Source: Parcubacteria group bacterium GW2011_GWC2_48_17 (GTDB lineage: Bacteria > Patescibacteriota > Minisyncoccia > Phycocordibacterales > UBA10002). From it: DNA of 64,000 nt. Position 1 is the stretch's first letter, and every line of letters starts with the position of its first letter. Of the stretch, positions 10,214-43,937 are shown one piece after another. A model generated the notes under the pieces. That model did no database searches. It had not been told where the DNA came from and saw only the letters and a program-made list of their open reading frames with translations. The stretch covers positions 7,976 through 71,975 of the forward strand of contig LCPL01000001.1 of assembly GCA_001003605.1 (NCBI GenBank), given 5' to 3'. The position numbers and the translations under genes were made by a program.

Positions 10214-10223
10214 TGCTAAAGAT

Positions 10224-11377: not shown

Positions 11378-11406
11378 TTGTTGACATTCTGAAAAGGTGA
11401 TATAAT
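11378..11406 (+). promoter_or_regulatory. Sigma70-like promoter with TTGACA and an extended -10 (TGATATAAT)
   Basis: ttgacattctgaaaaggtgatataat: a TTGACA hexamer and TGnTATAAT. It lies in a 750-nt intergenic region, upstream of a structured sequence. Confidence 0.4.
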
Positions 11407-12009
11407 TTCTTGCAGAATAATAAAGTTTCCTTATTGGAGATGGGGAAACAGGCAACCCGTCAGTGTTCCGATACTGATAAATACCCTAGGGGGGCATGTG
11501 GAACTCATCAGAGTTCCATCATCTCCAAAAATGTGGGACCTGAACTTATAATTCAGAGTTCACATGCGCCCTTAGGGTATTTTGTTTGGTCGGATTGTCT
11601 CTGTGAGTTTCTTTAAAGGAATTTACAGGGGCAATCAGCCCTTAGGCGGAATCCTAGTTACCCGTCGCATCGTCATTATCAGGATTCTTGTAATTAAATT
11701 TCGCCTATGACAATACGAATCGGAAGAAGCGCACGAACTGGTAAATTCACCAGCGTAGCACGGGCAATAGCTCGTCCAAATACGCATGTAGTGGAAACAG
11801 TGTACATTCCTCCTAAACGCAAAAAGCACTGCTAACATAGCAATGCTTTAGCGTTAAAAAGAAAAACAGAGAGCCGCCTTATACTAGGTTGGTGGTTTTC
11901 TGTTGCTAGGATTATACCTCTTTAACAAGGAGGCCGCATTATATTACTTGTGGATAATTGAGAGTTAGGTTAGCCCAAGAGGCTGAAATATGGTAGATTC
12001 TTTAGCACT

Positions 12010-13485: not shown

Positions 13486-13490
13486 CCTCT

Positions 13491-28502: not shown

Positions 28503-29027
28503 ATGTTCTCCGACCCCTCACAATGCATTGAACAATTTGACCTCCAAAGCGGCTCGCGCGTGGCCGACCTTGGCGCGGGCACCGGCGCGTTCGCGATTGC
28601 CGCTGCAAAAGCGGTGGGCGAGGCCGGCAAGATTTACGCCGTAGAAGTACAGAAGGGCCTTTTGGAGCGGCTCAAAAGCGAGGCCCGCGCGGCGCGCGCG
28701 CATAATGTGGAGGCGCTGTGGGGAGACATTGAACGCGTGCAGGGTACACACCTCAAAGACGCCTCCATTGACGCCGCCGTTGCGTCAAATGTGCTGTTTC
28801 AGGTTGAAGATAAAAACGGTTTTGTAACGGAAACGAAACGTATATTAAAACCAGGCGGCAAAGCGCTTCTCATAGACTGGACGGATTCTTGGAATGGTAT
28901 GGGTCCGCACAAGACCCAGGTAGTCACCGAAAACGCCGCTCGCGAGCTTTTTGAAAAGGCCGGCTTTCAGTTCGTAAAGAAAATCGACGCCGGAGAGCAC
29001 CACTATGGGTTAGTATTTAGAAAGTAG
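28503..29027 (+). CDS. Class I SAM-dependent methyltransferase
   Basis: VADLGAGTGAFAI (motif I) ... KPGGKALLIDW (post-I/II). Confidence 0.6.
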   Translation: MFSDPSQCIEQFDLQSGSRVADLGAGTGAFAIAAAKAVGEAGKIYAVEVQKGLLERLKSEARAARAHNVEALWGDIERVQGTHLKDASIDAAVASNVLFQVEDKNGFVTETKRILKPGGKALLIDWTDSWNGMGPHKTQVVTENAARELFEKAGFQFVKKIDAGEHHYGLVFRK

Positions 29028-29050
29028 AGGGTAGGTGGTAGAAAAAGACA

Positions 29051-29401
29051 ATGAAGGAATGGAATTACAAGAATCTTATTGTGTGGCAGAAGGCAATTGA
29101 TGTGGCCGTAAAAGTCTATCGTCTCACTGACACTTTCCCCAAAAACGAACAATACGGACTGATGTCTCAAATTCGCAGAGTAGCGTCCTCAATTTCAGCA
29201 AATATCGCGGAAGGTAGTCGGAGAAAAGGACCGAAAGACAGAGTCCATTTTTTTGTCATGGCGTATGGTTCTGGGGCTGAATTAGAATCCCACTTGGAAT
29301 TAGCTAAGCGTCTTTCGTTAGTATCTGAAGAGTCCCTAAAAGAAATGCCGGCGCTTTTAGACGAGGTGATGAAAATGTTAAACCGTCTCACCAGTGTATA
29401 A
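29051..29401 (+). CDS. Four-helix-bundle protein (23S rRNA intervening-sequence protein family, the same family as DGR Avd), copy 1
   Basis: KNLIVWQKAIDVAVKVYRLTDTFPKNEQYGLMSQIRRVASSISANIAEG...GSGAELESHLELAKRL is the canonical family signature. Confidence 0.75.
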   Translation: MKEWNYKNLIVWQKAIDVAVKVYRLTDTFPKNEQYGLMSQIRRVASSISANIAEGSRRKGPKDRVHFFVMAYGSGAELESHLELAKRLSLVSEESLKEMPALLDEVMKMLNRLTSV

Positions 29402-29476
29402 TTTTTAACCTGCTTGGGTTATACTTGAGTCGTTTCTCTTGCTACCTTCTACCCTCTACTTTCTACCTTCTAAACC

Positions 29477-30736
29477 ATGAATTCCTTCCAAATCATCGTC
29501 CTCGGTATCTTCGCCTTCTTCATTGTCGCCGGACTCGCGGCAATATCCCTCGTCAAGCAAAACGCCGGAGCGGAAGTCATATCGCTCACGATGTGGGGAA
29601 GCGTTGATAAAGACTTGGTTGAGAGTATCATCGGTAGCACCGTAAACAGCGAAACGCTCAAGGTTTCCTACAGGGAGATTCCGGAATGGTCGCTTGATAA
29701 AGAGATTGTAGAGGCGCTTGCGGTGCGTCGCGGTCCCGATATGCTTCTCCTGCCGCTTCCGCTTCTCACTCGCTACAAAGACAAACTGTTAGTAATCCCA
29801 TACAGCACTTATCCGGAACGCACATTCAAGGACACATTTATGCAGGAAGGAGACCTTTTCTTATCAAAGAATGGCATAATCGCTTTCCCTTTTTTACTTG
29901 ACCCGATGGTCATGTATTTCAATCGGGATTTGCTTGATGAAGTGAAAAAGCCCCAGGCGCCGAGATTTTGGGATGAATTTATCTCGCTCGCAAGGGACCT
30001 TACTTTGCGCGATGAGTATGGCAATATCTCGCGCAGCGCCGTCGCACTGGGCGAATATCGGAATATAAACCACGCGCGCGAGATTCTGGCGACGCTTTTT
30101 ATGCAGAGCGGAAACCCCATCGTCGCCAAAGGAGATTCCGTAAATAAGGTTACGCTGGACAAAAGTGGCACCTCTCCAGTGCTAGATTTTTACACTGAAT
30201 TCGCGAATCCGCAGAAACCCGTATATTCTTGGAATCGCTCGCTTCCGAGCGCGAGAAGCGCGTTTCTAGCCGCGAACCTAGCAATATACTTCGGTTTTGG
30301 GAGCGAATATGATGGACTGCGCAAAGGGAATCCCAATCTTGATTTTGATATCGCGCCATTTCCGAGGCCCCGAGACGCGAGTATCGCCATCACCTATGGC
30401 AAGCTCACTGGAGTGTCAATTCTCCGTACGGCTTCCAATACTGGAGTGGCCCTTCAAGTCGCTCTAACGCTCGTTAGTCCGAGGGCTCTAAACATACTTC
30501 GCTCCAAAACCGGGTTCCCGCCAGTTCATAGAGGTCTTCTTACTGCAAAGCCGACGGATGCTTTTGGAGCCGTTATGTACGATTCCGCTTTCATGGCGCG
30601 CGGATTTATTGACCCAAACCCGGCAGTATCCGCGGGAATATTCAGGAACATGATAGAATCGGTTACAAGCGGCAGAGCGCGGAGCAAAGAGGCGCTCCAA
30701 AAGGCGAATACGGAAATGAAAGAAGCGTTCCGGTAG
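29477..30736 (+). CDS. Membrane-anchored extracellular solute-binding protein (ABC-transporter substrate-binding family, tentative)
   Basis: N-terminal TM anchor. MalE-like substrate-binding-protein features (LTMWGS..., DMLLL, ...). Confidence 0.4.
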   Translation: MNSFQIIVLGIFAFFIVAGLAAISLVKQNAGAEVISLTMWGSVDKDLVESIIGSTVNSETLKVSYREIPEWSLDKEIVEALAVRRGPDMLLLPLPLLTRYKDKLLVIPYSTYPERTFKDTFMQEGDLFLSKNGIIAFPFLLDPMVMYFNRDLLDEVKKPQAPRFWDEFISLARDLTLRDEYGNISRSAVALGEYRNINHAREILATLFMQSGNPIVAKGDSVNKVTLDKSGTSPVLDFYTEFANPQKPVYSWNRSLPSARSAFLAANLAIYFGFGSEYDGLRKGNPNLDFDIAPFPRPRDASIAITYGKLTGVSILRTASNTGVALQVALTLVSPRALNILRSKTGFPPVHRGLLTAKPTDAFGAVMYDSAFMARGFIDPNPAVSAGIFRNMIESVTSGRARSKEALQKANTEMKEAFR

Positions 30737-30842
30737 AGACAAATACCAATCTGCAAATGTATACCAATTTTCCAATACCTGCGAATAAGAGTTAAGAATC
30801 CGAATTGGTAGGTATTTGTAGATTGGAATGGATTAGTTATCA

Positions 30843-31415
30843 TTGGTATCTGTCATGTCTCGTTTTTTCCCAATCTCAATACTTTCCACTCTTGTTCTAC
30901 TTGGAACGGTCATCCCGTTCGCTCATGTCGCGAACGCGCAACAACAAACGAACCCGCCAGGCGAAACCAAATACGACGATGCGTATGTCCCGTGCGGGTA
31001 CGCTGATACAAAAGACAAACAAGGGAAACCGGCAGAACAAACAATCACCTTACCCGATGGCACTACAAAAACTATCCCCGGAGACGGCGTCGTAGACAAC
31101 CCCTGCAAATTCACGCACATCATTGAGCTTGCAAAAAAGCTCATCATGGGTTGGATTATCGCCGGTGTTATAATTGCGACTATGGGTTTCGCGTACGCAG
31201 GGCTTCTCTACATTACCGCCATGGGCTCATCGGAGAAAGTGAGCCACGCGCACTCAATTTTCATAAAAACCTTCTGGGGATTCGTGTTCATGCTTTCCGC
31301 GTGGCTTATAGCGTATACTATGGAGAGCATTTTCCTTTCCAAGGAGGCAAAGTGCAATTCGTTTTTGACCACTCCCGAAGATAGAGTAAAATTGGGGTGT
31401 CCAACGACCCCATAA
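30843..31415 (+). CDS. Secreted two-TM pilin-like protein, paralog 1 (TrbC/VirB2-like architecture)
   Basis: Signal peptide. Two hydrophobic helices are separated by a short charged loop (..AMGSSEKVSHAHS..). Shares the core with six downstream paralogs. Confidence 0.45.
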   Translation: MVSVMSRFFPISILSTLVLLGTVIPFAHVANAQQQTNPPGETKYDDAYVPCGYADTKDKQGKPAEQTITLPDGTTKTIPGDGVVDNPCKFTHIIELAKKLIMGWIIAGVIIATMGFAYAGLLYITAMGSSEKVSHAHSIFIKTFWGFVFMLSAWLIAYTMESIFLSKEAKCNSFLTTPEDRVKLGCPTTP

Positions 31416-31420
31416 GAAAT

Positions 31421-31562
31421 CGGGGAGAACATGACACCCAAAGCACAGTGTCCAAAAACCCAAACAAAGCACAGTGTGTCAAAAAAACAAACAAGTCCGG
31501 TTTGTGTTTTGAAAGTTTGTGCAGTTTGTTTGGGCTTTGTGTACTGTGCTTTGGTAAGTTTA
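31421..31562. repeat. Long imperfect palindrome, CA-rich arm / TG-rich arm (~60-nt arms). Second copy at 54775-54915.
   Basis: The left arm cccaaagcacagtgtccaaaaacccaaacaaagcacagtg... is almost G-free. The right arm ...cagtttgtttgggctttgtgtactgtgctttgg is its approximate reverse complement. Copy 2 shares caaagcacagtacacaaag...ccggtttg.... Confidence 0.5.
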
Positions 31563-31584
31563 AAACAGGTAATTAAGCCAACTT

Positions 31585-32007
31585 ATGTCTTTCATTGAAA
31601 AAGTGTGCCATTCGTTTAGCAAAGTACCACAAATGGCAGTGCATCTGGGCTGGGGCGCTTTTCTCATGCTCTTTCTCACGCCGCAATCAGCCTTTGCGAC
31701 ACCATGTCCCGAAGGAAGACTCTGCAATCCCATCAACTTTCCCAATCTTACCGCGTTCCTGCTTGAAATTGTAAATATAGCAATCCAGTACGGCGCGCTC
31801 CTTATCGTATTTTTCATCGTCTTCGCCGGTTTTAAATTCGTTACGGCGCAAGGGAACAGCGAGAAGGTGAGTGAGGCGAGAAAAATGTTTACGTGGATTG
31901 TTGTCGGCGCCTTCGTGCTTCTTGGCGTCTATGTGATTAAGGCCGCCATCTGCGGCTCCATAGAACAGCTTGGGGTCACGAACGCGTGCGGATTGACTTC
32001 GCAATGA
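31585..32007 (+). CDS. Secreted two-TM pilin-like protein, paralog 2
   Basis: ...ALLIVFFIVFAGFKFVTAQGNSEKVSEARKMFTWIVVGAFVLLGVYVI... is the same helix / charged-loop / helix core. Confidence 0.45.
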   Translation: MSFIEKVCHSFSKVPQMAVHLGWGAFLMLFLTPQSAFATPCPEGRLCNPINFPNLTAFLLEIVNIAIQYGALLIVFFIVFAGFKFVTAQGNSEKVSEARKMFTWIVVGAFVLLGVYVIKAAICGSIEQLGVTNACGLTSQ

Positions 32008-32026
32008 AAGCAGTACTTAGTAGTTA

Positions 32027-32182
32027 GTAGTAGAGGACTTACGCGGTTGACTGAATTCTCCCTTAATAAAGGGAGCACTGCCGCCTTCGGCAGGAGGGAT
32101 GTTACAACCCCCGCCTCGCCGACTCGGCACCCCCTTTACTAAGGGGGACACACTTCGACCGGATTCCAAACGCGTAAGTCCT
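32027..32182. mobile_element. MITE-like element, copy B (TIR AGGACTTACGCG), with a hairpin-rich interior
   Basis: aggacttacgcg at 32027 and cgcgtaagtcct at 32171-32182. The interior has ctcccttaataaagggag and cccccctttactaaggggg stem-loops, and is related to 37640-37870. Confidence 0.5.
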
Positions 32183-32209
32183 AAGTAGTAGATTAATAGA
32201 CAAAGCAAA

Positions 32210-32593
32210 TTGATGAAAACTATAAGCCACAAAACAAATAGATTTTCTTTGCTACCCTCTACCTTCTACCTTCTACCATCTGCTTTCTTCTACCTTCTAC
32301 CTTCTGTTTCCCTTGCCAACGACTCCATCAAAATCTTTGATACTCCCAATAAGCTCACGTTCACAGACCTCGCGGGGCGGCTTGCAGGCGTTGGGAATAC
32401 AATCATAACCTTTCTCGTCGGCGTTGCTCTCGTTCTTTTGATTTGGGGCGCTTTCAAGTACATCCGTGCCGCCGGCGACTCGGAAAAGCTTGCCGAGGGA
32501 CGTCGAGTGGCCGTCTATGGCATCATTGCCTTGTTTCTAATGCTTTCTTTCTGGGGATTTGTTATGATTATCAAGAAGAGCTTGTTCGGGTAA
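32210..32593 (+). CDS. Secreted two-TM pilin-like protein, paralog 3. Its N-terminal hydrophobic region is encoded by CTACCTTC repeats.
   Basis: ...TFLVGVALVLLIWGAFKYIRAAGDSEKLAEGRRVAVYGIIALFLMLSFWGFVMII. There is no in-frame alternative start downstream of the repeat region. Confidence 0.45.
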   Translation: MMKTISHKTNRFSLLPSTFYLLPSAFFYLLPSVSLANDSIKIFDTPNKLTFTDLAGRLAGVGNTIITFLVGVALVLLIWGAFKYIRAAGDSEKLAEGRRVAVYGIIALFLMLSFWGFVMIIKKSLFG

Positions 32594-32659
32594 TACCAAT
32601 CTGCGAATGTGAACCAATCTACGAATACCTGCTAATAAAACCTACTAATAAACACGCCA

Positions 32660-33130
32660 ATGGCTAGACAAATTTTCTCAATGCTCCTCATAACGCTGAT
32701 GTTGCTGTCTGGAATGATGATGTTTGCGACTCCCACGTTCGCGATATTGTGCGCCTACACGGACGGCGGCACGGTTGAGGTACCTGGGACAGTGTGTCCT
32801 GATGGAAGCACACCTGTTGGCGATCCATCTGGTGACGGCGGCAGTCAAATAACCACCTTCGCTGGTTTGCTAAAACACATCAACGCACTTCTCAACCTCG
32901 TTGTTCCGTTCCTCGTGGGTCTGGCTGTTTTTGTTATAATCTACGGAGTCTTCAAGTACGTTTTCCACGCGGCAGATGAGGAGAAGCGGACGGAAGCAAG
33001 ACTCTTCATCGTCTGGGGAGTAATCGGCGTCTTCTTCATGCTCTCCATTTGGGGGCTCGTGAATATCCTTGTCAACACCGTTCCTCTGCAAAAAAAGCCG
33101 CCGAAGGTGGAGTCGGTGTTTCCTAAGTAA
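32660..33130 (+). CDS. Secreted two-TM pilin-like protein, paralog 4
   Basis: Signal peptide and a Cys-containing N-domain. Core: ITTFAGLL...VPFLVGLAVFVIIYGVFKYVFHAADEEKRTEARLFIVWGVIGVFFMLSIWGLVNIL. Confidence 0.5.
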   Translation: MARQIFSMLLITLMLLSGMMMFATPTFAILCAYTDGGTVEVPGTVCPDGSTPVGDPSGDGGSQITTFAGLLKHINALLNLVVPFLVGLAVFVIIYGVFKYVFHAADEEKRTEARLFIVWGVIGVFFMLSIWGLVNILVNTVPLQKKPPKVESVFPK

Positions 33131-33178
33131 ATACCAATATACGAATGGGAACCAATCTACGAATACCTGCGAATAAGA

Positions 33179-33312
33179 TAGGACTTACGCATTTCGTCAT
33201 TTTCTGTCATTCCCGCGCAGGCGGGAATCCATGCCTTGAAATAACACTCTGGATTCCCGTTCCCCGCCTTCGCGAGGACAAGCTTCACGGGAATGACACC
33301 AAATACGACTTT
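33179..33312. mobile_element. MITE-like element, copy C (left TIR TAGGACTTACGC, degenerate right end)
   Basis: taggacttacgcattt at 33179. The interior has gtcattcccgcgcaggcgggaatcc and ctggattcccg cores homologous to copy A. The ORF-track ORF 33145..33339 is the translation of this repeat. Confidence 0.45.
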
Positions 33313-33335
33313 TTAGAAGCTAATTTCTTAACCTC

Positions 33336-33905
33336 ATGAAGAAAACATACGCGTTTGCGGCAATCTTTGTGTTACTTTTCGTTCTGTCCGCTTCTTTACT
33401 GCCCGGTATTACATTTGCGAACCATGTGTGTATCGGCGATCCTAATTGGGACGAGGACAATGATTTTGCCGAAGGCCATGCTTGTGTCCCGGCCAGCAAT
33501 AGCGGCGGTGGCGGCAAAATAACCACCTTTGAAGGTTTGCTCGGCAAACTAAGTTCGGCCGTCAACTCGCTCGTGCCGTTCATAATAGGACTCGCGGTTT
33601 TTGTCATTATCTGGGGGATTTTTAACTACATCGTGCGTGCCGCAGATGAGGAGAAACGGGCGGATGCGAAAAAGTACATTATCTGGGGAATCGTTGGGTT
33701 GTTTTTTATGCTCTCCATCTGGGGCTTCGTGAACATCCTCTTAAACAGCATCAACCTTGATAGGACCATCAAGACAAGCGATATTCCAAGAGTTCCAAGC
33801 ATTGGCGGGATAGACGGGACAGATGGCGGCACCCCCAGCGGACGGGACAATGGAAGAGATGGCACAGATGACTGTGATCCATCTATTAAGGATTGTCAGC
33901 AATAA
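33336..33905 (+). CDS. Secreted two-TM pilin-like protein, paralog 5, with a G/D-rich C-terminal tail
   Basis: KITTFEGLLGKLSSAVNSLVPFIIGLAVFVIIWGIFNYIVRAADEEKRADAKKYIIWGIVGLFFMLSIWGFVNILLNSINL, then GGIDGTDGGTPSGRDNGRDGTDDCDPS. Confidence 0.5.
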   Translation: MKKTYAFAAIFVLLFVLSASLLPGITFANHVCIGDPNWDEDNDFAEGHACVPASNSGGGGKITTFEGLLGKLSSAVNSLVPFIIGLAVFVIIWGIFNYIVRAADEEKRADAKKYIIWGIVGLFFMLSIWGFVNILLNSINLDRTIKTSDIPRVPSIGGIDGTDGGTPSGRDNGRDGTDDCDPSIKDCQQ

Positions 33906-33924
33906 TTATGAGTGTACCGCCACT

Positions 33925-34281
33925 ATGTTGTTTAGCATAGGAAAGAAAAACACAGCTCTCATTTGGTACGGCCTTCTTTATTTTTTTCTCGCGCCACTCA
34001 CTTTGTTCGCGCAGTCTACTGACCTGCCGAAAGACGCAACCGAGCTCCTCAACCGCATAAGCACATTCATCATAAACCCCATCATCTATCTCCTTTTCGC
34101 CGCCGCGTTTGTAATTTTCGTTTGGGGACTCGTGCAATTCGTGGCGCATCTTGACAACGAAGAGGCGAGAAGCACGGGGGGTAAGCACATGATTTGGGGC
34201 ATCATCGGCATGGTCATCATGGTCAGCGTCAACGGAATAATCTACATAATCCAAAACACCATTCTTCAGCTGGGAAGCTGA
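33925..34281 (+). CDS. Two-TM pilin-like protein, paralog 6 (divergent)
   Basis: Start moved to Met 33925 (the 33823 start overlaps paralog 5). ...IIYLLFAAAFVIFVWGLVQFVAHLDNEEARSTGGKHMIWGIIGMVIMVSVNGIIYII. Confidence 0.4.
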   Translation: MLFSIGKKNTALIWYGLLYFFLAPLTLFAQSTDLPKDATELLNRISTFIINPIIYLLFAAAFVIFVWGLVQFVAHLDNEEARSTGGKHMIWGIIGMVIMVSVNGIIYIIQNTILQLGS

Positions 34282-34338
34282 AGAATAGCTGCTAGCTGTT
34301 AGGTGCTAGGTTCTAGGAAGGAAAAAGAAAAGAAATAG

Positions 34339-34638
34339 ATGCATGAAAGCCGAAAACTAACCGCTTCTGCCCTGCCTTTGACCGATAACGCCACTAATGC
34401 TAGCATAAGAACCATGAATACAATCGTTTTGAAAACAGCTGAATATCAAGAACTAAAGACCCGCGCTGATGCATACGATAGGTTGGTATTTGCCGTGCGT
34501 GAAGAGATTTTTTCGCCACCTCCGACCCGAAACCGCGCCAAGATTATTTCTGAATTAAAAAAGACAAAACGCTATAACAATAAATTTCTTGAGAGTCTCG
34601 CTCGCGGTTTGAAGCGTTCGTCGTATTTCACCTCATAG
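34339..34638 (+). CDS. Putative antitoxin partner of the RelE/ParE toxin (assigned by position only)
   Basis: 99-aa ORF ending 8 nt before the RelE-like toxin gene. No motif recognised. Confidence 0.35.
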   Translation: MHESRKLTASALPLTDNATNASIRTMNTIVLKTAEYQELKTRADAYDRLVFAVREEIFSPPPTRNRAKIISELKKTKRYNNKFLESLARGLKRSSYFTS

Positions 34639-34645
34639 ATTTTCC

Positions 34646-34894
34646 ATGAAAATACTCCCGCTTCATTCGGAAATCGTCCGGTATATTAAAGCGCGAGGTT
34701 TGCTAAAACGGTTTGAAAAGCAGTCAAGACTTTTCGTCGCTAATTTAAATCATCCGAGTCTTGAAATGGGATTGCTTGAACCAAGGCATTTGCGCATTTT
34801 TAGTTTTCGCCTCAACCGGAAGTACCGAGCGATTTTCATTTTTCAAGACAGGGAGACGATTGAGGTGATTGATATCAATAATCACTACCAATAA
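34646..34894 (+). CDS. RelE/ParE-family type II toxin
   Basis: ...HPSLEMGLLEPRHLRIFSFRLNRKYRAIFIFQDRETIEVIDINNHY matches the RelE/ParE C-terminal pattern (HP.L....L.....s.R+...YR.i....+..i.v..I..H). Confidence 0.6.
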   Translation: MKILPLHSEIVRYIKARGLLKRFEKQSRLFVANLNHPSLEMGLLEPRHLRIFSFRLNRKYRAIFIFQDRETIEVIDINNHYQ

Positions 34895-35025
34895 GAAGAA
34901 TAGCTGCTGGCTGTCCGGCGCTAGGTTCTAGCCGGATAAAGGAGAGGAAGATAGCTTCTAGCTGCTAGGTTCTAGCTTTTAGGAAAGAAATCGAAAAACA
35001 ACTTCTAGATAAGCGCCACACATGT

Positions 35026-35394
35026 ATGACTATCACAAAATCCTACAAAGACCTGATTGTGTGGCAAAAAGGAGTTGAACTTTCCGTGCTTGTATATGAA
35101 CTGACTGAAAAGTTTCCCAATGAAGAGAGATATGCGCTTACTTCACAAATGAGACGAGCTGCCGTTTCCATTCCATCAAATATAGCCGAAGGGCGTTGTA
35201 GAAGTACAAAAAAGGATTTTTGCCAGTTTCTGCATATTGCCCTCGGTTCTGCGGCAGAGCTTGAAACACAAATAGAAATTGCAAAGCGAATATCAAAGAC
35301 CTCCAATATCTCATATACAACCATAGAAGCCCTGCTTACCGAAGTTATGAAAATGCTCAATGCTCTTATCTCCAAACTAGAAGCCAATGCCTGA
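35026..35394 (+). CDS. Four-helix-bundle protein (IVS/Avd family), copy 2
   Basis: KDLIVWQKGVELSVLVYELTEKFPNEERYALTSQMRRAAVSIPSNIAEG...LGSAAELETQIEIAKRI. Confidence 0.75.
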   Translation: MTITKSYKDLIVWQKGVELSVLVYELTEKFPNEERYALTSQMRRAAVSIPSNIAEGRCRSTKKDFCQFLHIALGSAAELETQIEIAKRISKTSNISYTTIEALLTEVMKMLNALISKLEANA

Positions 35395-35563
35395 CAGCGC
35401 CAGCACCTTCTCTCGATTCTGCTTCTTCTAGAACCTAGCAGCTAACACCTATCCCTTGCTATCCACACCCCCCCCTTGCGCGTGCGGGAATATAGGATAG
35501 AATAGTGCGTATTAATAGGATTTTCCAAATAGGTCGTATTACTAATTATTTTATAAGTGCTTT

Positions 35564-35989
35564 ATGACTACATTGAAGAAAATTGTCCTTGCGGTCTCTG
35601 CGTATGCTTTGCCGCTGGCCGCGTTTGCACAGGCAGAGGTAGGTAATCTTACTGACCTGTTTATCACAATAAACGGGATTATCAACACCATTATTCCGTT
35701 TCTCGTCGGAATCGCCGTCTTTATCATCATCTGGGGCGTCTTCACCTACATTGCCGGCGCGGGAGACGAGGAGAAGCGGGCGCAGGCGAAGTCGTTCATC
35801 GTCTGGGGTGTTGTCGGCGTGTTTATCATGCTCTCCATCTGGGGGCTCGTGAACATCCTCGCCAACAGCATAAATCTCAAAAAAGACCCGCTTTCACAAG
35901 ATGACCTTCCGACATTTGACTTTGATTTCGGGCAGGACGTTGGCCCTGGCCCTGGCCCTGGTCCCGGCCCTGGCGATGAACAACAGTAA
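35564..35989 (+). CDS. Secreted two-TM pilin-like protein, paralog 7, ending in a (GP)n tail
   Basis: Signal peptide. IIPFLVGIAVFIIIWGVFTYIAGAGDEEKRAQAKSFIVWGVVGVFIMLSIWGLVNILANSINL. C-terminal GPGPGPGPGPG. Confidence 0.5.
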   Translation: MTTLKKIVLAVSAYALPLAAFAQAEVGNLTDLFITINGIINTIIPFLVGIAVFIIIWGVFTYIAGAGDEEKRAQAKSFIVWGVVGVFIMLSIWGLVNILANSINLKKDPLSQDDLPTFDFDFGQDVGPGPGPGPGPGDEQQ

Positions 35990-36084
35990 TTAGTGTGTTT
36001 CGTGATGGTTCTCTGATTAAAAAGAAACGCCAAGGACCTCTGTCCTTGGCGTTTTGCGTTGTTTCCCCATCCATGGGAGATTTT

Positions 36085-36804
36085 TCACTGTCTCCGATTG
36101 ACGGCGAGGCCGGAGCGACCTTGGACTTCACCTGCCACAACGGCGGTGAAGCTCTGGGTCTTAACTACCGTTCCCCGTAAGTGTCCATGCCGAGGAAGCG
36201 GGGAGCCGATGGAGGCGGCATGTCGGCGTCCTTTTTTCAGGAAGTTCGGGGTGGACACGTCCACATGTCCCCTCACATGAGCGGACGCCGTAATCCTTGC
36301 CCTACTCCCGCCGTAAACGGTGGGGGGGAGGAAGCTCCGAGTCCCTCCACCGAAGTTGGAGTGCGTTGACCCCCATTGCCGACTTGGAGCAAGCATCAAT
36401 GCTCCATTCGAGCGGCGCACTAACACCGCCTTTCCGCGAGGAGCTGGGTAGTTCCCTTGCCGTACTTCCTGCGGCGCAATGTTGCCAGTAACCCCCGTAA
36501 CCCCCGGATTGGGGAAGGGGGGAATGACCGTCGGTGAGGTCGCGCCCGGAGGCCTCTGCCCGAGAACCCTCTCCCTCCATGTTCGCTCTTCAACCGGCGG
36601 TGTTGACACCACCGTGAAGTTTGTCTGGGCGTACACGACTTGGGGTTGATTCCCCACCTGCTGTGATATCACTGTCCCAGAGATGTTGGTCGTAAGGACC
36701 GGCGGGACATACCGATGCCCCACACTCCCAGTCCGCGGGCCGACGCATCCTACCGCCGTCATGGCGATTATGATTCCAAAGAACAAACCGATTTTTGCTT
36801 TCAT
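36085..36804 (-). CDS. Putative lipoprotein (GC-rich island)
   Basis: Lipobox-like N-terminus MKAKIGLFFGIIIAMTAVGC. P/G/T-rich mature region. Confidence 0.45.
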   Translation of the reverse strand: MKAKIGLFFGIIIAMTAVGCVGPRTGSVGHRYVPPVLTTNISGTVISQQVGNQPQVVYAQTNFTVVSTPPVEERTWRERVLGQRPPGATSPTVIPPFPNPGVTGVTGNIAPQEVRQGNYPAPRGKAVLVRRSNGALMLAPSRQWGSTHSNFGGGTRSFLPPTVYGGSRARITASAHVRGHVDVSTPNFLKKGRRHAASIGSPLPRHGHLRGTVVKTQSFTAVVAGEVQGRSGLAVNRRQ

Positions 36805-36950
36805 TTCTGCCTTTCGGTGTTGTATCCGCGACTTTGCCGCGGATGGGTTTCTGAAATGCTGCGAGCATTATATCATGCATACCAATATGTCGTCAAGTTT
36901 TGAATCAAGGTTCAACTTTTCTCCGATTTTAAGGTTGAACCTTGGTATCA

Positions 36951-36985
36951 GAAAAAAAAACGCCAGACGCGGGGTGCGTCTGGCG
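36951..36985 (-). terminator. Intrinsic terminator for 37011..37535 (-)
   Basis: On the + strand: A9 then cgccagacgc-gggg-tgcgtctggcg. This reads as hairpin + T9 on the minus strand. Confidence 0.6.
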
Positions 36986-37010
36986 CTGTGCAGGAAGGTC
37001 TCCTCGGATA

Positions 37011-37535
37011 CTATCGCCGGCCATAGCTGGGAAGGAGCACCAACGCTCCGTCAGAGCGATAACCAAATCGCGCCCTCCCAGTGGAATAGCGGTACGGCCG
37101 ATAGTGTCGGCCATATCCTCCATACCCGCTAGTGCGGTAGTACCCGCGCCTGTAGTGGGAGTAGGAGTACGGGTGATAGTGGCGAACACTTTCAGCGCCG
37201 GGCATGAAGTATTGGTATTGGACGGGGTACGCGCCCCCTCCAGCCTGGACGAGAAGAACAAATTGATGTCCGCCTCCTCCTTGGGGAGCGGTTGAAGCAG
37301 GCGCTGATATCGGCTCCGTCGGCACGAAGACTGGCGTCCCATCTTTTGCAAAGAGCCACTGTCCCTGAAGCTCCACCAGTTTCCCATCCCGCAGAATTGT
37401 CGGGTTTTTGAGCACGACGGGTGGGTTGATGGAAGCCGCCAATGGCGGTGTTGCGGGGTCGGAAGCGGCTTGCCCAAAGGCAAGCGGGCCGATGCCAAGT
37501 GCGATGGCAAAGAACAGACTTTTCTTGTTTTTCAT
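37011..37535 (-). CDS. Secreted protein with a Y/G/R-rich low-complexity C-terminus
   Basis: Signal peptide MKNKKSLFFAIALGIGPLAFGQAA. C-terminal HYHPYSYSHYRRGYYRTSGYGGYGRHYRPYRYS. Confidence 0.45.
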   Translation of the reverse strand: MKNKKSLFFAIALGIGPLAFGQAASDPATPPLAASINPPVVLKNPTILRDGKLVELQGQWLFAKDGTPVFVPTEPISAPASTAPQGGGGHQFVLLVQAGGGAYPVQYQYFMPGAESVRHYHPYSYSHYRRGYYRTSGYGGYGRHYRPYRYSTGRARFGYRSDGALVLLPSYGRR

Positions 37536-37893
37536 GCAGTCGAATAGGTTTTGAGTGTTTCGATTGGCTGGTTTTTACCAGCAGAGGACTTTTCTCTGTT
37601 TCGACTCTACCACGGCATCACAATCGCGTCCAACATTAAAGGGTAATCACCGATACTCCCATCTTCTTCCGGAATTCTCCCTTACCAAAGGGAGTACCGA
37701 ATTCTGATTCGGGGAGGGTTGTTGCGGGTAAGCTATTTGTTAAGGGGGAAACAACCCCCGCTCCGAAGACGGAGCATCCCTTCACTAAGGGAAAGACAAC
37801 CCCCACCTCGCAGACTCGGCACCCCCTTTGTTTCCGCCAAAGGACGGATCCGCCTCTGGAGGAAAGGGGGATTGGAGAGTGTGAGAATTGACT

Positions 37894-37935
37894 AAAAACA
37901 CCGACTCCAGAAGCTCCTGGAGTCGGTGTTTTTTA
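37894..37935. terminator. Bidirectional intrinsic terminator (A5 - 12-bp stem - T6)
   Basis: aaaaa caccgactccag aagc tcctggagtcggtg tttttt. Lies 60 nt downstream of the stop of 37993..39237 (-). Confidence 0.65.
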
Positions 37936-37992
37936 TTTGTATTTTGGAATTTGTGATTTGTTTAGAGTTTAGAGTTTCGAATTTAGAGTTTC

Positions 37993-39237
37993 TTACACTA
38001 CGTGGTCTCTCTCTTCTTCCTCCGTATCTTCCTTGGAGCGTTTTCTAAGCGCCATGAAGATGCCGAAGATGATGAGCAGAATCGCACCGATGCCCCATCC
38101 TATAGGACCGCTCACTCGCGAGAAGATTGTTCCGGCTGAAAGCCCATTTTTTTGCTTTGTGATTTCTACCGGATAACACGCCACGGTTTTCGCTTTGTCT
38201 CCCGACACTACCGTTACGGAGGCACGCTTCCCGCCGGTTTTTTCGTACGCCTTTGATGTGGTCGCGCCTTCCCCGGAAAGCGCCTCATCGCCAAACCACG
38301 AAAATCTATATTCTCCCATACCCCCTATGGCAACCGCGTGCCAGACCATCGCGCTCCCTTGCTCCGCTTTCGCTGAAGAGGGAATACACAAGGCCTGAAC
38401 CGGCAGGGCCGCTGTCTTTTCTTTTCCATTAGGAGAAGAGACTGGCGGAGGTACTGCGGGCTTTGAAGGAGTTGTCGGGGTTTGGGCGCCGACGGTTACG
38501 AAGTTTGTGCACGAAACCGCTATGCGATTCTTTCCATCCGCAACCGTAAGCACCGCGAATTTACTCCCGGCGCTCGTGTATGATTTAGAAACAATCGGCC
38601 GCTCGCCTGTGAGTCCTTCCGCGCCATCCCACGAGTAGGTGGTGGATGCAGTAGTGCCCGAAACTATGGAAAGCCACGTTACGCTTTCTCCGAGAACTGC
38701 TTTTTCAGGTGTTGCGTAACAAGAAGCGCCGAGCCCTCCCGCCTGTCCATAATGGAATTGGCCGCCACCGGAATCTGCTCCAATGAGCGTTCCGCCGCAA
38801 GAAACCGTTATCTGTTTAGTGCCCGACGTAACTGTAAGAATGCCAAATTTTTCTCCCATGGTCGCGTATGTCTTAGATACGGCGCTTGTGTTGCCAGACA
38901 AGCCGTCGGTTCCGCTCCACGAGTAAAGATATGTTCCTTGGCCGCCGGAAACGGAAGAGAACCATGTAATTGTCTGCCCGACACCGCTTCTCAAGGTTGA
39001 TGGAGCGCAAGAAACAGAAAGTCCGCCGGCAGTACCCGGTCTGCCTCCAGAAGAAGAGTCGTATTCCGAAAACGACAGGGTGGGCATGAGGTACAGTGCC
39101 CCCGTCCGGGCATTTCTTTCAAATCGAGGGCTGTCACTTTGCGCGTTAATCGCTGAAATGGGCAAGAAGAGTCCTATAGCTAGGGAAATGACAAAAATCG
39201 GTTGTATTAGTGTGTTGATTGTCGTTTTATTTTTCAT
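37993..39237 (-). CDS. Cell-surface protein with three ~90-aa Ig/PKD-like repeats and a C-terminal TM anchor
   Basis: Signal peptide. Repeats share SC.P....G...TW...VSGG.G.Y.YSW.G.DGLSG.....SK.Y...G.K.....V.SG.K...VSC. C-terminal TM GIGAILLIIFGIFMAL + RKRSK. Confidence 0.5.
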   Translation of the reverse strand: MKNKTTINTLIQPIFVISLAIGLFLPISAINAQSDSPRFERNARTGALYLMPTLSFSEYDSSSGGRPGTAGGLSVSCAPSTLRSGVGQTITWFSSVSGGQGTYLYSWSGTDGLSGNTSAVSKTYATMGEKFGILTVTSGTKQITVSCGGTLIGADSGGGQFHYGQAGGLGASCYATPEKAVLGESVTWLSIVSGTTASTTYSWDGAEGLTGERPIVSKSYTSAGSKFAVLTVADGKNRIAVSCTNFVTVGAQTPTTPSKPAVPPPVSSPNGKEKTAALPVQALCIPSSAKAEQGSAMVWHAVAIGGMGEYRFSWFGDEALSGEGATTSKAYEKTGGKRASVTVVSGDKAKTVACYPVEITKQKNGLSAGTIFSRVSGPIGWGIGAILLIIFGIFMALRKRSKEDTEEEERDHVV

Positions 39238-40353: not shown

Positions 40354-41769
40354 TCACTTTACCTCTCTTCCGACTCCCACCACGACGTTGGTAGGTGTTG
40401 GATTCGTCCAGCGGTACTGGACATAGGTCGTACCAATAGGGATTCCAGTTGAAACCCCAGGAGTCTTCGGGAGTAGAACTCCGTTCGCCCACAGCTCGTA
40501 CGGGAGTCCCGATGGCTCCATACGAGTTGAGAATCCCGCCGGCCGTGGTATTCGCTCGCTGATAGTGGTACTCAGCGTAATCGGATATTTTTGGGGGTTA
40601 ACGAGTCCGTGCCAGATTTCCTCCGTCGGCGCTGGCCTCGTTGCCACTGCCGCCGTTTGCTGCAGTGCGGCAAGTTTCCGTGCCGCCGCCTCTGTGGCGC
40701 GCGAGGTGGCGCGCATTGTCTCGTACGTCCGTTTTTCTTCCATCTGCGAAGCAATCCGGCCGTTGTGTTCCTCATGAGCGCCCCTCACGTGTTTGTACGC
40801 CCACGTGAGGCAGAGAATTATGACGGCCGCCATGGTCGCCATTCCCACAAAGCTACCTCCTTTGCCGCTTCCTCCCGTTGCCGTTGCCGCCACTCCCGCC
40901 GGTGCTTTTGCCTGTTTCAGCAATTTCACCACGAGGTAGGCAATGAGGAACACAACAGCAACCGCGATGACAGCGCCAATCCAGTGCTCCATAGTCCATG
41001 TCGAAACCGTTTTTATGGCTCCCACCACATGCTTTGTCTCAACTTCCTCCAAACCTTTGGGGCTACCTTCCGTTGGAATGTTGCCTCCCTTGTAGAGGAA
41101 AGCAAAGAAGTTGAGCTTGGGCAAGAAGAAGCAGATAAGCAACAGACCAACCGCCGCAAAGCCGGAGAACCGTACAAACGGTTTCATCCATTTGCCAGTG
41201 GCCGTACCCCACTCGTATGAGGAGAAGATAAGGAGGCCGACAATGAGCAGAAACATCGGCACTCCTCTCCAATAGTTCTGAATCGGGACGAAGTTGAGCG
41301 TAATAAACGCCGCTGCCTCGTAAATCAGAACCTGCCGCGCGAAGCTAATGTAAGTCTTCAGTCTTCGCGCAAGCCATCCTCGCTCTGCATCCGCTCCTGT
41401 CGGCTCCCCGGATTTTTTCTTTCCCGCCAGGAGATCAATGAGAAGCGCCAGCGGCACCGCGTAGTGCGCAAGCACCATGGTCCATATGAAGCACCAAACT
41501 CCCATCCACCCAACGAGCGTACGCCACCCCAGAAGGAGCGCGATGACGCTGACGAGGAGAGGAGGGAGGAAGGTGAGTGTCGCAAGCCGACGCAGTCCCC
41601 GAAAGTAATGCGCCGCAGGGTCGCTTACGCGCTTGACAGCCCAATCTACTCCATGGATGACCATGTCTGCCACCAACTTGATTGCTGGCACCAGATTTCT
41701 GATGCCGACCGCGATGATAACCACGGCGGCTCCTAGTCCCCATGCCAGACCTTTCAGTGTTTTTTTCAT
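40354..41769 (-). CDS. Hypothetical polytopic membrane protein (GC-rich island)
   Basis: 471 aa with about 9 hydrophobic helices. No recognised motif. Confidence 0.4.
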   Translation of the reverse strand: MKKTLKGLAWGLGAAVVIIAVGIRNLVPAIKLVADMVIHGVDWAVKRVSDPAAHYFRGLRRLATLTFLPPLLVSVIALLLGWRTLVGWMGVWCFIWTMVLAHYAVPLALLIDLLAGKKKSGEPTGADAERGWLARRLKTYISFARQVLIYEAAAFITLNFVPIQNYWRGVPMFLLIVGLLIFSSYEWGTATGKWMKPFVRFSGFAAVGLLLICFFLPKLNFFAFLYKGGNIPTEGSPKGLEEVETKHVVGAIKTVSTWTMEHWIGAVIAVAVVFLIAYLVVKLLKQAKAPAGVAATATGGSGKGGSFVGMATMAAVIILCLTWAYKHVRGAHEEHNGRIASQMEEKRTYETMRATSRATEAAARKLAALQQTAAVATRPAPTEEIWHGLVNPQKYPITLSTTISERIPRPAGFSTRMEPSGLPYELWANGVLLPKTPGVSTGIPIGTTYVQYRWTNPTPTNVVVGVGREVK

Positions 41770-41806
41770 TTTCAGTTCAGTTTTTGGTTTTGGGTTCAGA
41801 GTCGCA

Positions 41807-42607
41807 TCATGCCCAGAGTTTCGCCATCAGTTTCCATGGCGCGTCCAGTATCTTTCCGATAACGCTCTCGCTTGAGCGTTTTGCTTTCGCCTCTCGCTCT
41901 TTGCAGAGCCGTTCGGCGTCCTTCTTGAGCCAATTAACGGCTGGCGTGAGTTCTGCGTTGAAGTCACCAAGTCCTTTGTCTGCCGCCTTTACGGCGGTGT
42001 TGAAGCCGCTCCTCAACCGCTCGCCAAGTGGCACGCCCGGCTCCGATTCTTTCGGCCTTCCGTGGGCAAGCGCATCCTTGACGTCCACTAACCCATAAGC
42101 TTCCGCCTTGAGCTGGTTGACGACAATTTCCATGTCGGTGGCATGCGTCGAAGCGATGAGCTCCAACGCACGCGCCCAAAATGCATCCTGAATCTTTGAG
42201 AAACTCTCCTTGGTTTTCTCGCTCACCTCCGGCCCGTGTTCGAGAGCGTCCCTCCCGAAGAGTTCACCACGGTAACTATCGAGGAAGTCCGATACTTTCC
42301 TCATAAGGGTCTTCAACGGCTCGGGCTGGTTATCAGCCGCCTTGTCGATTCTACCGGACAGCATTCCGAGTCCGTAGTTCATCAGTGGGTGTAGAAGAGG
42401 ATTTCCTGGCTTTAGCCATTTCTTCGTTGCCACCGCCGCACTCTTCGCAAGTTTGTCGATTCCCGGGTCAGTGAGTCCTGCGAAAGTACCCAGGTCGAGT
42501 TCGACCTTGAACAGATCCTTGAGAACCTTTACCCCCTGATCCAGCAACGGGTCGCCCAAACTTGTCGTGCTAGGAGTTCCTCCCGCGGGTGGTGTAGGTG
42601 TTGCCAT
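41807..42607 (-). CDS. Hypothetical soluble protein (GC-rich island). Probably co-transcribed with 40354..41769.
   Basis: 266-aa ORF on the same strand, 37 nt upstream of the membrane-protein gene. Confidence 0.35.
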   Translation of the reverse strand: MATPTPPAGGTPSTTSLGDPLLDQGVKVLKDLFKVELDLGTFAGLTDPGIDKLAKSAAVATKKWLKPGNPLLHPLMNYGLGMLSGRIDKAADNQPEPLKTLMRKVSDFLDSYRGELFGRDALEHGPEVSEKTKESFSKIQDAFWARALELIASTHATDMEIVVNQLKAEAYGLVDVKDALAHGRPKESEPGVPLGERLRSGFNTAVKAADKGLGDFNAELTPAVNWLKKDAERLCKEREAKAKRSSESVIGKILDAPWKLMAKLWA

Positions 42608-43069: not shown

Positions 43070-43495
43070 TTAAACTTTATTTTTTAGATAGGTGTCAATC
43101 TGGATGAGGTACATTTTGAAATCAGAGAAATTACACTTAAGATTATTCAAGAACAAATCCTTGTCCAGTTTTTCGTATCGGTGGACAAGCATATTTCGTA
43201 CGCCGACAATCGGCGCAATCTTGCCCGCGAAATCTTTTTCCAATACGCCGAAATCTCCGAGCATCCTAAAAGTGCCTTGTAAATCATCAACCGTTCCGAA
43301 ATCGCTCGCTGTGATAAGGTGAGTGTTAATGTCAACCATGGTGTCTACCGCCTTCTGAAAGTAGCGTTCCAGCGCAGGAAGTCTCATGTCATCGTTTTTA
43401 ATGACCTCAATGGGAGTTTCCATGAGCTTTTCAATTTTGCCCACGCTCTCCGAGAGCATATCCATTTTCTTTTGTATGAAGACTTTATCCAACAT
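43070..43495 (-). CDS. HepT-like (DUF86/HEPN) toxin of a HepT/MntA toxin-antitoxin pair
   Basis: Rx4HxY motif (GVRNMLVHRY). About 140 aa. It overlaps the 3' end of the upstream nucleotidyltransferase gene by 11 nt. Confidence 0.55.
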   Translation of the reverse strand: MLDKVFIQKKMDMLSESVGKIEKLMETPIEVIKNDDMRLPALERYFQKAVDTMVDINTHLITASDFGTVDDLQGTFRMLGDFGVLEKDFAGKIAPIVGVRNMLVHRYEKLDKDLFLNNLKCNFSDFKMYLIQIDTYLKNKV

Positions 43496-43937
43496 ATTTG
43501 TATTCGCTTATTCTTCGCTTCAGGTATTCCTCCCTAAGCCTGAACAGCGGTTCCGCCTCTTCATATGTCCTTAAGGCATACAAGAGCATATCGTCAAACA
43601 GGTGCGGGGTTTTTTCGTATAACACTTTTGCGTTTTGAACAATTTGCTTCAGAAGCAACGGCGGGGCTTTTCTGAAATTAACCGTGGAGACCTTGTCGTT
43701 TTTAAACACTTCAGTCAAATCAGTGTTTAACGACACCTCATCCTCAAACGACATCTTGTTTTCTGACAAAAACGCCACATCAACATCACTTTCTTTGTGC
43801 GTAAATCCGGTTGCCTGCGAGCCGAATAGCACCACAAGGGAGAAGTGATAGCGTACGGCGATTTCCGCAATTCTATTTTTGTCTATCTTTATCATGCGCT
43901 TACTATACCATAAAAATGTTCGACAGGCGATTATCAC
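43485..43937 (-). CDS. MntA-like minimal nucleotidyltransferase (antitoxin partner of HepT)
   Basis: LFGSQATGFTHKESDVDVAFL is the GSx9-13DxD nucleotidyltransferase motif. Confidence 0.55.
   Translation of the reverse strand: MIIACRTFLWYSKRMIKIDKNRIAEIAVRYHFSLVVLFGSQATGFTHKESDVDVAFLSENKMSFEDEVSLNTDLTEVFKNDKVSTVNFRKAPPLLLKQIVQNAKVLYEKTPHLFDDMLLYALRTYEEAEPLFRLREEYLKRRISEYKYVG

Follow-up and report, generated by a model that had tools for sequence, protein, structure and literature searches.

Is a tandem array of small, diverged secreted proteins a locus of rapid diversification or a fixed set of subunits, and which apparatus would such subunits serve? This question is raised by seven genes on the + strand (positions 30843-35989) of a 64,000-nucleotide stretch of DNA from Parcubacteria group bacterium GW2011_GWC2_48_17 (contig LCPL01000001.1), which was analysed as a whole and is here called the window. 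A first-pass annotation, made from the sequence alone, had taken the seven gene products for TrbC/VirB2-like pilins encoded by a duplication-and-diversification locus. Our work supports the first part of this idea and contradicts the second: The array is an old, stable operon and not a diversification hot-spot. It probably encodes pilins of a type IV secretion system (T4SS) that would be encoded elsewhere in the genome.

The evidence for stability comes from the comparison with four other species, represented by the loci L007, L009, L010 (Taylorbacteria RIFCSPHIGHO2_01_FULL_51_15) and L016 (Parcubacteria GW2011_GWA2_49_9). In all four, the genes for a Lactamase_B_3 protein, gyrA, a methyltransferase and a solute-binding protein (SBP_bac_1) are followed by seven pilin-like genes and then by genes for PKD and CARDB surface proteins. 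When the 35 array proteins of the five genomes were compared all against all by BLASTP, the best match in another genome was the positional ortholog in 138 of 140 cases, with scores of 104-220 bits for orthologs as compared to 15-127 bits for the other paralogs; the sole exception is a reciprocal pair formed by paralog 5 and the protein at position 4 of L009. The seven types are held one-to-one and in the same order across the five species, a structure that was not reported in the recent survey of pilin genes in the Patescibacteria (PMC12102498). Between the species, pS is saturated (0.58-0.85) and pN is 0.19-0.34, about the same as for the genes of the binding protein and the methyltransferase, and dN/dS does not exceed 0.25 wherever dS is unsaturated. 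The seven genes are under purifying selection, much like the genes that flank them. Other samples yielded contigs of the same population, whose identity over the array is 99.0-100%, and the copy number is constant (in L006, the first 203 nucleotides do not match the window, and the apparent differences in paralog 2 are an alignment artefact that was excluded).

The differences that do exist between the species have a defined location. In the ortholog alignments, the type-specific hairpin cores are conserved, the N-terminal domains (N-domains) and C-terminal tails are rich in insertions and deletions, and two of the tails, (GP)5 in paralog 7 and GGIDGTDGG in paralog 5, are species-specific. Diversification is confined to the N-domains and C-tails, i. 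e. to the parts that are predicted to lie outside the membrane. Paralog 5 is a special case: In the four other species, the members of orthogroup 5 have no leader, and the protein of the window alone has a signal peptide and an N-domain with a Cys pair. In BLAST searches with the split protein, the N-terminal part (33336-33545) found its best match in B4, the protein at position 4 of L009 (6012-6533; E 1.9e-10), whereas the best matches of the C-terminal part were C5, A5, D5 and B5, and both the core and the IP(K/R)VP tail are those of orthogroup 5. Since the two parts differ in their best matches, we conclude that paralog 5 is a chimera that arose by an N-domain swap. A local cluster of changes was also observed in paralog 7 of the strain variant L003, with eight single-nucleotide polymorphisms (SNPs), seven of them synonymous, within 28 nucleotides (L003 5297-5324, corresponding to 35800-35827 of the window) as compared to seven differences in the rest of the 7 kb. 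This looks like a short recombination tract; gene conversion was considered as its origin and rejected, as only two of the eight variant bases agree with paralog 4 and only four with paralog 5.

Could the locus nevertheless be a cassette array in an accessory-gene mosaic that duplicates and diversifies rapidly, in a manner similar to antigenic variation and to the virB2 genes of Bartonella and Anaplasma? The paralogs are just 24-57% identical at the protein level, even orthologs show large differences in the length and sequence of their N-domains and tails, and the swapped N-domain of paralog 5, the clustered SNPs in paralog 7 and the mobile-looking insertions between the genes could be taken as traces of such a process. 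However, the copy number, the order and the identity of the seven genes are fixed in five species, the cluster is found class-wide, and selection is similar to that on the neighbouring genes. Moreover, every copy is equipped with a start and a signal of its own, silent cassettes are absent, and the clustered SNPs were not copied from paralog 4 or 5. Finally, the parts of a diversity-generating retroelement (DGR) are lacking: no reverse transcriptase was present among the ORFs (open reading frames) of the window that were scanned, the repeat analysis gave no pair of template and variable repeats, and the Avd-like genes at the locus are not the Avd genes of a DGR. We regard rapid diversification as very unlikely. 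The synteny comparison, which had been suggested in order to detect variation in paralog number or sequence, found the same seven genes in the same order in four species and strains without any change in copy number; this conserved synteny leaves the reading as a diversification locus unsupported.

The proteins themselves are built much as had been proposed. The ORF survey yielded seven + strand ORFs of 118-190 amino acids with the starts given in the first-pass annotation, and the array has one interruption by three inserted genes. Upon alignment, the seven proteins share a core of two hydrophobic helices, the first of them long, that are connected by a short charged loop; this core is preceded by a hydrophobic N-terminus ending in an A-x-A-like site and by a variable stretch of 10-70 residues. 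The predicted helix-loop-helix topology was borne out by a Kyte-Doolittle scan with a 19-residue window, which detected two strong hydrophobic segments in each of the seven proteins, and by the AlphaFold2 (AF2) model of paralog 7, in which a signal helix is followed by a two-helix hairpin (helices 3-22, 29-64 and 69-107; mean predicted local distance difference test score, pLDDT, 76.8). The signal-like N-termini end in FAN, FAQ, FAT or ANA; they are easily recognized in four paralogs (1, 4, 5 and 6) and less pronounced in the other three (2, 3 and 7). C-tails are present in paralogs 1, 4, 5 and 7. Some details had to be revised. The loop motif A(A/G)D(E/S)EK and the ending FFMLSIWG..VNIL, which had been ascribed to all members, fit paralogs 3, 4, 5 and 7 alone (the loop being AGDEEKR in the best-conserved paralogs) and do not fit paralogs 1, 2 and 6. 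It is not paralog 6 that has the most divergent core but paralogs 1 and 2 (15-47 bits against the other paralogs), and the N-domain of paralog 4, described as Cys-rich, contains one Cys pair, as is also found in paralogs 1, 2 and 5. At the DNA level, paralogs 4, 5 and 7 are 63-75% identical over 223 nucleotides.

Profile searches place the proteins in the pilin superfamily that had been suggested for them. The gathering threshold of PF18895 (T4SS_pilin; 26.6 bits) is reached by paralogs 2 to 7 (26.6, 30.8, 35.6, 40.3, 35.8 and 37.8 bits, respectively), and paralog 1 falls below it (20.4 bits); the hairpin of about 70 residues that is typical for this family, two helices joined by a short loop, is present by hydropathy in all seven proteins and in the model of paralog 7. 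The PF04956 (TrbC/VirB2) profile, with a threshold of 27.9 bits, recognizes paralog 6 best (22.5 bits, E 1.3e-4), and paralog 7 scores 14.1 bits. Among the 44 homologs that were scanned, all matched PF18895 and 12 matched PF04956 at E<0.01 (best 9.4e-6). For paralog 7, 105 homologs were found, nearly all of them with PF18895 and from metagenome-assembled genomes (MAGs) of Parcubacteria and Taylorbacteria, and some of them are called 'pilin' by NCBI. Paralogs 4, 5 and 7 also match NF045849 (the Mbov_0395 family) over the full 80-residue model with 33-40 bits, all below its cut-off of 40, with paralog 4 reaching 39.8 bits. As judged from these profiles, the seven proteins are members of the VirB2/TrbC-like pilin superfamily and distant relatives of VirB2 and TrbC. 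Type IV or Flp pilins were considered as well and rejected: the class III leader motifs G/FxxxE and G/xxxxEY are absent from the seven sequences, all of which have two helices, and none of the seven matched a type IV pilin model in Pfam or NCBIfam.

The genomic context of the array is conserved far beyond the five species. The first conserved gene of the cluster (29477..30736, + strand) encodes a membrane-anchored MalE-like solute-binding protein of 419 amino acids with a transmembrane (TM) helix at residues 1-29 and a match to PF01547 (SBP_bac_1) of 33 bits. A profile of this protein family matched MBP1 (4r9f) over the full length in a search against the PDB (E 3.8e-16), and with the AF2 model (pLDDT 90.2) Foldseek retrieved MalE/MBP with E~1e-21 and a TM-score of ~0.7. 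No gene for an ABC permease or ATPase is located beside it. In a scan of one genome per species, the profile of the array proteins detected three to seven pilin-like ORFs in nearly all of 80 loci. Sufficient upstream sequence was available for 65 loci. In 61 of these, a homolog of the binding protein (29-64% identity, ~99% coverage) is encoded directly upstream of the first pilin-like gene, in most cases with the methyltransferase gene in front of it, and gyrA is present in 57 of the 65. Thus, gyrA, the methyltransferase, the MalE-like protein and the pilin array form a conserved core-genome cluster across the Paceibacteria. Neither gyrA nor a solute-binding protein is mentioned in PMC12102498, and a literature search for the combination returned nothing relevant.

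Several variants were also noted. In sister lineages, single ORFs with two tandem PF18895 domains stand in place of two array genes (L036 9800-10603 and L029 8960-9895; also in L053, L035 and L041). A second locus of Ca. Taylorbacteria RIFCSPHIGHO2_01_FULL_51_15 (L032 4169-10261) encodes a protein of 2030 amino acids with an IPT/TIG domain that ends in a PF18895 hairpin (35 bits), apparently a giant surface protein that is anchored or displayed via the pilin-like module; this is consistent with the hairpin serving as an anchor or display device for extracellular parts. In Parcubacteria GW2011_GWA2_49_9, the gyrA gene upstream of the orthologous array contains an intein (PF14890) and has been annotated as two genes (L016 225-3657).

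What do the pilin-like proteins do? We consider, with moderate confidence, that the locus represents, in the Taylorbacteria, a conserved operon of the Paceibacteria for T4SS pilins that are assembled by a T4SS encoded elsewhere. The seven proteins would be exported by the Sec pathway and cleaved by signal peptidase, and their hairpins would span the membrane so that the two ends face the outside and the acidic-basic loop faces the cytoplasm. By analogy to the proposal for Southlakia epibionticum, they may then be extracted and assembled by the monoderm-type T4SS of the Patescibacteria into a mixed pilus or stalk, the exposed variable ends of which could contact the host cell. The existence of seven conserved types would favour a division of labour (major, minor or tip subunits) over antigenic variation.

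A number of findings weigh against this reading, at the level of the family as well as at that of the genome. With respect to the family, the match of paralog 6 to TrbC/VirB2 is significant, but none of the seven proteins reaches the curated cut-off of PF04956. A tblastn search with paralogs 6 and 7 against 72,556 plasmids gave no match, so that the link to conjugative pilins is visible at the profile level only. No solved pilin was matched when the family profile was run against the PDB sequences, and the fold search with the model of paralog 7 against the PDB retrieved generic helical hairpins alone (chemoreceptor, ATP synthase c; all E>=1) and is uninformative because the hairpin is such a simple fold. 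It might be argued from the latter result, and from weak sub-threshold matches to Saf_2TM, DUF3054 and a holin family, that the genes encode unrelated small membrane proteins (holin-like, of the bacteriocin or immunity type, or generic proteins with two TM helices) that resemble pilins by their hydrophobic composition only. We consider this highly improbable, as the PF18895 matches are consistent and above the cut-off, the TrbC matches are statistically significant, the family is tied to T4SS genes in the Saccharimonadia, and the motifs of the charged loop and around WG have been kept, which goes beyond mere hydrophobicity. At the genome level, the search for VirB4, VirD4, VirB6, VirB3 and other T4SS families gave no Pfam match in any substantial ORF of the 64-kb window, which agrees with the earlier statement that no T4SS ATPase or VirB6 is encoded nearby. 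Similarly, five orthologous loci with precomputed Pfam calls contain no T4SS gene within 10 kb of the array, and the neighbours at two distant loci that were sampled are housekeeping genes or unknowns, without a T4SS. An association with virB4, as known for many pilin genes of the Patescibacteria, is not found in the window, and it is not obligatory for this class of arrays. To our knowledge, no T4SS has been described that is tightly linked to a binding protein. Moreover, no pilus has so far been seen for any T4SS of the Patescibacteria (our reading of PMC12857230 and PMC10633639).

The distribution of VirB4 points in the same direction. This ATPase is present in 2,417 of 3,035 assemblies of Patescibacteria, i. 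e. about 20% are negative (PMC12102498 Table S1). Ten array-bearing assemblies are also contained in that table, a small and non-random set of incomplete MAGs: six of them are listed as VirB4 'No' (GCA_003514705.1, the three Taylorbacteria 51_15, 50_130 and 46_13, as well as Greene0416_79 and Greene1014_15) and four as 'Yes' (GWA2_49_9, Taylorbacteria 46_22b, Zambryskibacteria RIFOXYC1_39_10 and CG11_39_22). GCA_003514705.1, a groundwater MAG of 995,636 bp with exact matches to our proteins, is assigned to Candidatus Taylorbacteria in the class Paceibacteria (PMC12102498). The relative 49_25, which has the closest named ortholog of the binding protein, is VirB4 'No' likewise. By a rough binomial estimate, at least six negatives out of ten have P ~0.007 at a background of 0.2; this excess is a lead and not a result, since the MAGs are incomplete and the sample is small and non-random. 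Conversely, the four positive assemblies show that the array can occur together with a T4SS encoded at a distance.

These findings make it necessary to consider a device that is independent of a T4SS: The MalE-like protein and the seven two-helix proteins may form a VirB4-independent membrane or surface complex of their own, for example a structure for host contact or for the capture of nutrients or sugars, and the name 'pilin' would then reflect ancestry only. In most of the 61 loci, the gene of the binding protein directly adjoins the first array gene or overlaps with it (with ORF starts called mechanically), no T4SS gene was found near the array in the loci examined, and VirB4 is listed as absent for six of the ten assemblies, as compared to about 20% overall, and for a seventh relative; all seven genes are nevertheless under purifying selection. 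An independent apparatus would explain why the operon lies apart from T4SS genes and persists under selection where VirB4 is not found. The tandem-fused double hairpins and the giant protein with a C-terminal hairpin would also fit a role in membrane anchoring. On the other hand, the genomes listed without VirB4 are incomplete MAGs, four of the array-bearing assemblies are VirB4-positive, members of the same family are located inside the T4SS cluster in the Saccharimonadia and are essential there together with the T4SS, the adjacency at gyrA could partly be frozen gene order, and an independent complex of this kind is without precedent. We judge such a device possible, but rather unlikely. A protein of 471 amino acids with about six hydrophobic segments (40354-41769, - strand) and a partner of 266 amino acids are encoded within 40354-42607; no Pfam family matched either of them at E<=1, and just seven homologs, none of them annotated, were detected for the larger one. 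Weak homologs of one or both recur downstream of the array in several relatives (L017, L019, L022, L029 and L035). The six-TM protein, for which Pfam gives no support, is at most a candidate for a hidden VirB6-like component.

Turning to the individual genes, paralog 1 (orthogroup 1; 30843..31415, + strand) encodes 190 amino acids from a TTG start, or begins with ATG at 30855. It is composed of a signal peptide, an N-domain of 70 amino acids with a conserved Cys pair (YVPCG...DNPC) and a divergent hairpin core, and with its score of 20.4 bits it is tied to the family via its orthogroup and its similarity to the paralogs alone; its orthologs in the four species score 160-220 bits and the other paralogs at most 42 bits. 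Paralog 2 (orthogroup 2; 31585..32007, + strand; 140 amino acids), for which the internal Met17 is the likely true start, has a conserved C..LCNP motif and C-terminal Cys residues and lies exactly at the PF18895 cut-off; its orthologs are 64-83% identical (154-169 bits). Paralog 3 (orthogroup 3; 32210..32593, + strand; 127 amino acids, TTG start) has orthologs with 104-134 bits. Its signal-peptide region is encoded by a periodic repeat of the CTACC type (32252-32305) that matches 29442-29471; this leader-coding stretch (LLPSTFYLLPSAFFYLLPS) is a 7-nucleotide periodic repeat that also flanks the upstream four-helix-bundle gene described below. As the orthologs in the four other species have ordinary non-repetitive leaders, the leader here seems to have been partly replaced by repeat DNA.

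Paralog 4 (orthogroup 4; 32660..33130, + strand; 156 amino acids) consists of a signal peptide, the N-domain, the core and a C-tail that ends in ..VESVFPK, as is conserved in its orthologs (124-158 bits). It is followed by the chimeric paralog 5 (33336..33905, + strand; 189 amino acids) and by paralog 6 (orthogroup 6; 33925..34281, + strand; 118 amino acids), which has the loop HLDNEEARS and orthologs with 133-153 bits. The longest ORF of paralog 6 begins at 33823; the ATG at 33925 is preferred because the former start would overlap paralog 5 and the latter yields a proper signal peptide. Paralog 7 (orthogroup 7; 35564..35989, + strand; 141 amino acids including the (GP)5 tail) has the most conserved core of the array. 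A promoter scan found fewer sites than in shuffled sequences. The array is closed by a strong, terminator-like bidirectional hairpin (36024..36055), the 14-bp stem of which is followed by a run of T (-23 kcal/mol, z -5.7).

The array genes are tightly packed in most other species, and in the window the spacers are widened and contain repeats and additional genes. A conserved motif of about 45 nucleotides had been reported to follow three of the paralogs. Such a repeated motif does exist, but it is 58 nucleotides long and follows two paralogs and the binding-protein gene; its three copies are found only at this locus. In the spacer that separates the binding-protein gene from paralog 1, copy 1 and its inverted partner (30742..30827, + strand) form a long hairpin with a folding energy of -28.6 kcal/mol (z -5.0), and copies 2 and 3 are unstructured. 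Copy 2 (32592..32649, + strand) lies at the junction of paralogs 3 and 4, where a match to the motif core is also found in L015/L016, and copy 3 (33130..33187, + strand) follows paralog 4 and precedes a palindromic element of the GTCATTCCCGCGCAGGCGGGAATCC type (33190-33310). A search of the intergenic repeats against Rfam returned nothing above the gathering score, the sole match being a chance hit to a miRNA at 30742..30827 (27.5 bits vs 90). Between paralogs 2 and 3 lies a hairpin-rich insertion resembling a miniature inverted-repeat transposable element (MITE) with the inverted ends GGACTTACGCG and CGCGTAAGTCC (32040..32190, no strand assigned), and a partial second copy is present at 37672-37829.

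The three inserted genes separate paralogs 6 and 7. Two of them, small genes for 99 and 82 amino acids (34339..34894, + strand), possibly form a toxin-antitoxin pair, with a weak match to a HigB-like toxin (22.3 bits vs the cut-off of 27) and no match for the upstream gene in Pfam or NCBIfam; they are absent from the orthologous arrays of L007, L010 and L016. The third (35026-35394, + strand) lies in a cassette with 26-nucleotide inverted repeats (34950..35453) and encodes a four-helix-bundle protein of the family of 23S rRNA intervening-sequence proteins (PF05635, 134.7 bits; TIGR02436, 130.5 bits). A second gene of this family (29051-29401; PF05635/TIGR02436) has 44-nucleotide inverted repeats, and the inverted repeats of both cassettes (29005-29478 and 34950-35453) are composed of periodic sequence of the CTACC / TAGCTG type. 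The two had been described as Avd-family genes between the paralogs; one is indeed inside the array, but the other lies outside, upstream of the binding-protein gene, and an assignment to DGR was rejected for both, as DivGenRetAVD gave 34 and 25 bits against a cut-off of 80 and the scores for bAvd are also below the cut-off. A four-helix-bundle gene is located between genes 6 and 7 here and in L007 and between genes 4 and 5 in L009, and it is absent from L010 and L016; these genes behave in the manner of small mobile cassettes. Later, lineage-specific insertions into widened intergenic spacers would account for the four-helix-bundle gene, for the toxin-like pair and for the small repeats, and they give the locus its mosaic look.

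The remainder of the window is ordinary chromosome, with gyrA, two mreB genes, mreC and mraW and the genes for ribosome recycling factor, prolyl- and lysyl-tRNA synthetases and penicillin-binding proteins, and with a defence island upstream. Genes of the defence or mobile type around the core genes (394-15989 and 43070-43937) encode a PrimPol-domain protein of 863 amino acids, a GmrSD-like endonuclease, a type III restriction-modification pair (methylase and Res helicase) and a HepT/MNT toxin-antitoxin pair. Between the defence-gene region and a gene for a small secreted protein, we found a full-length LOOT RNA (Rfam RF03000; 7940-8064, + strand) with 80.2 bits as compared to the gathering score of 46.4. 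Immediately downstream of the array, the region 36000-38000 has a GC content of 0.55 vs ~0.47 and encodes a lipoprotein-like protein of 239 amino acids and a secreted protein of 174 amino acids without family matches; a homolog of one or the other is found downstream of the array in several relatives.

How does the locus relate to known systems? VirB2, TrbC and TraA share with the seven proteins two hydrophobic helices, a short charged loop and a small mature size, in addition to the similarity at the profile level, and the signal-like N-termini may correspond to their long leader. In VirB2 and TraA, both termini are outside and the loop, which is mainly basic, is inside. In contrast, the proteins described here score below the PF04956 cut-off, are encoded without an adjacent virB3 or virB4 in a monoderm host, and possess extra N-domains of 40-70 amino acids, low-complexity tails and an acidic-basic loop (GDEEKR). 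The type IV and Flp/Tad pilins are likewise small secreted filament subunits that often occur as several paralogs, but their leader is of class III, and they have just one hydrophobic helix, which is N-terminal. The Mbov_0395 family (NF045849) from integrative and conjugative elements (ICEs) of Mycoplasma is again a small two-helix protein of a wall-less or monoderm lineage, but it is encoded by a single gene in the ICE conjugation module and not by a chromosomal array. Several diverged tandem pilin paralogs are also known from the amplified virB2 genes of Bartonella, Anaplasma and Rickettsia, for which a role in varying or broadening the host-contact surface has been proposed (as cited in PMC12102498). 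Those paralogs are part of the T4SS locus of diderm intracellular pathogens and are discussed in terms of immune evasion, whereas we find seven conserved orthogroups under purifying selection.

The closest relatives are the VirB2-like arrays of the Patescibacteria, which belong to the same Pfam family, consist of five to seven small, diverged paralogs in tandem with putative signal peptide and hairpin, and are chromosomal, off conjugative elements and without a relaxase. A search of 3,035 Patescibacteria genomes with PF18895 and PF04956 identified 441 arrays of 2-11 pilin genes with a mean identity of 25% in 383 assemblies, and in 1,135 of 1,948 assemblies a pilin gene is near virB4 (within 20 genes on either side) (Quinonero-Coronel et al. 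2025, PMC12102498). In S. epibionticum, the six PF18895 genes SEML1_0014-0019 are all essential and located beside genes for PrgI- and VirB6-like proteins (Wang et al. 2023, PMC10633639), and a review from 2025 highlights the Patescibacteria array as a possible pilus in a monoderm (PMC12857230). Since such arrays have already been published, the locus belongs to a known kind and the phenomenon itself is not new. There are differences, however: The array of S. epibionticum adjoins genes of the PrgI, VirB6 and VirB4 types, whereas the genes described here are next to gyrA, a methyltransferase and a MalE-like protein, and the survey counted pilin arrays mainly in the Microgenomatia and Saccharimonadia and does not mention the present gene context. 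The Patescibacteria represent a large share of the uncultured bacteria and depend on hosts, and the pilin arrays are essential in the one species tested. In the Paceibacteria, the array is a fixed set of distinct subunits that is coupled to a protein of the sugar-binding type and detached from the secretion machine, and the purifying selection on this fixed set argues against simple antigenic variation. To the known arrays, our work adds the conserved structure of seven orthogroups and the finding that, throughout the class, the array is coupled to a binding protein and lies apart from the T4SS.

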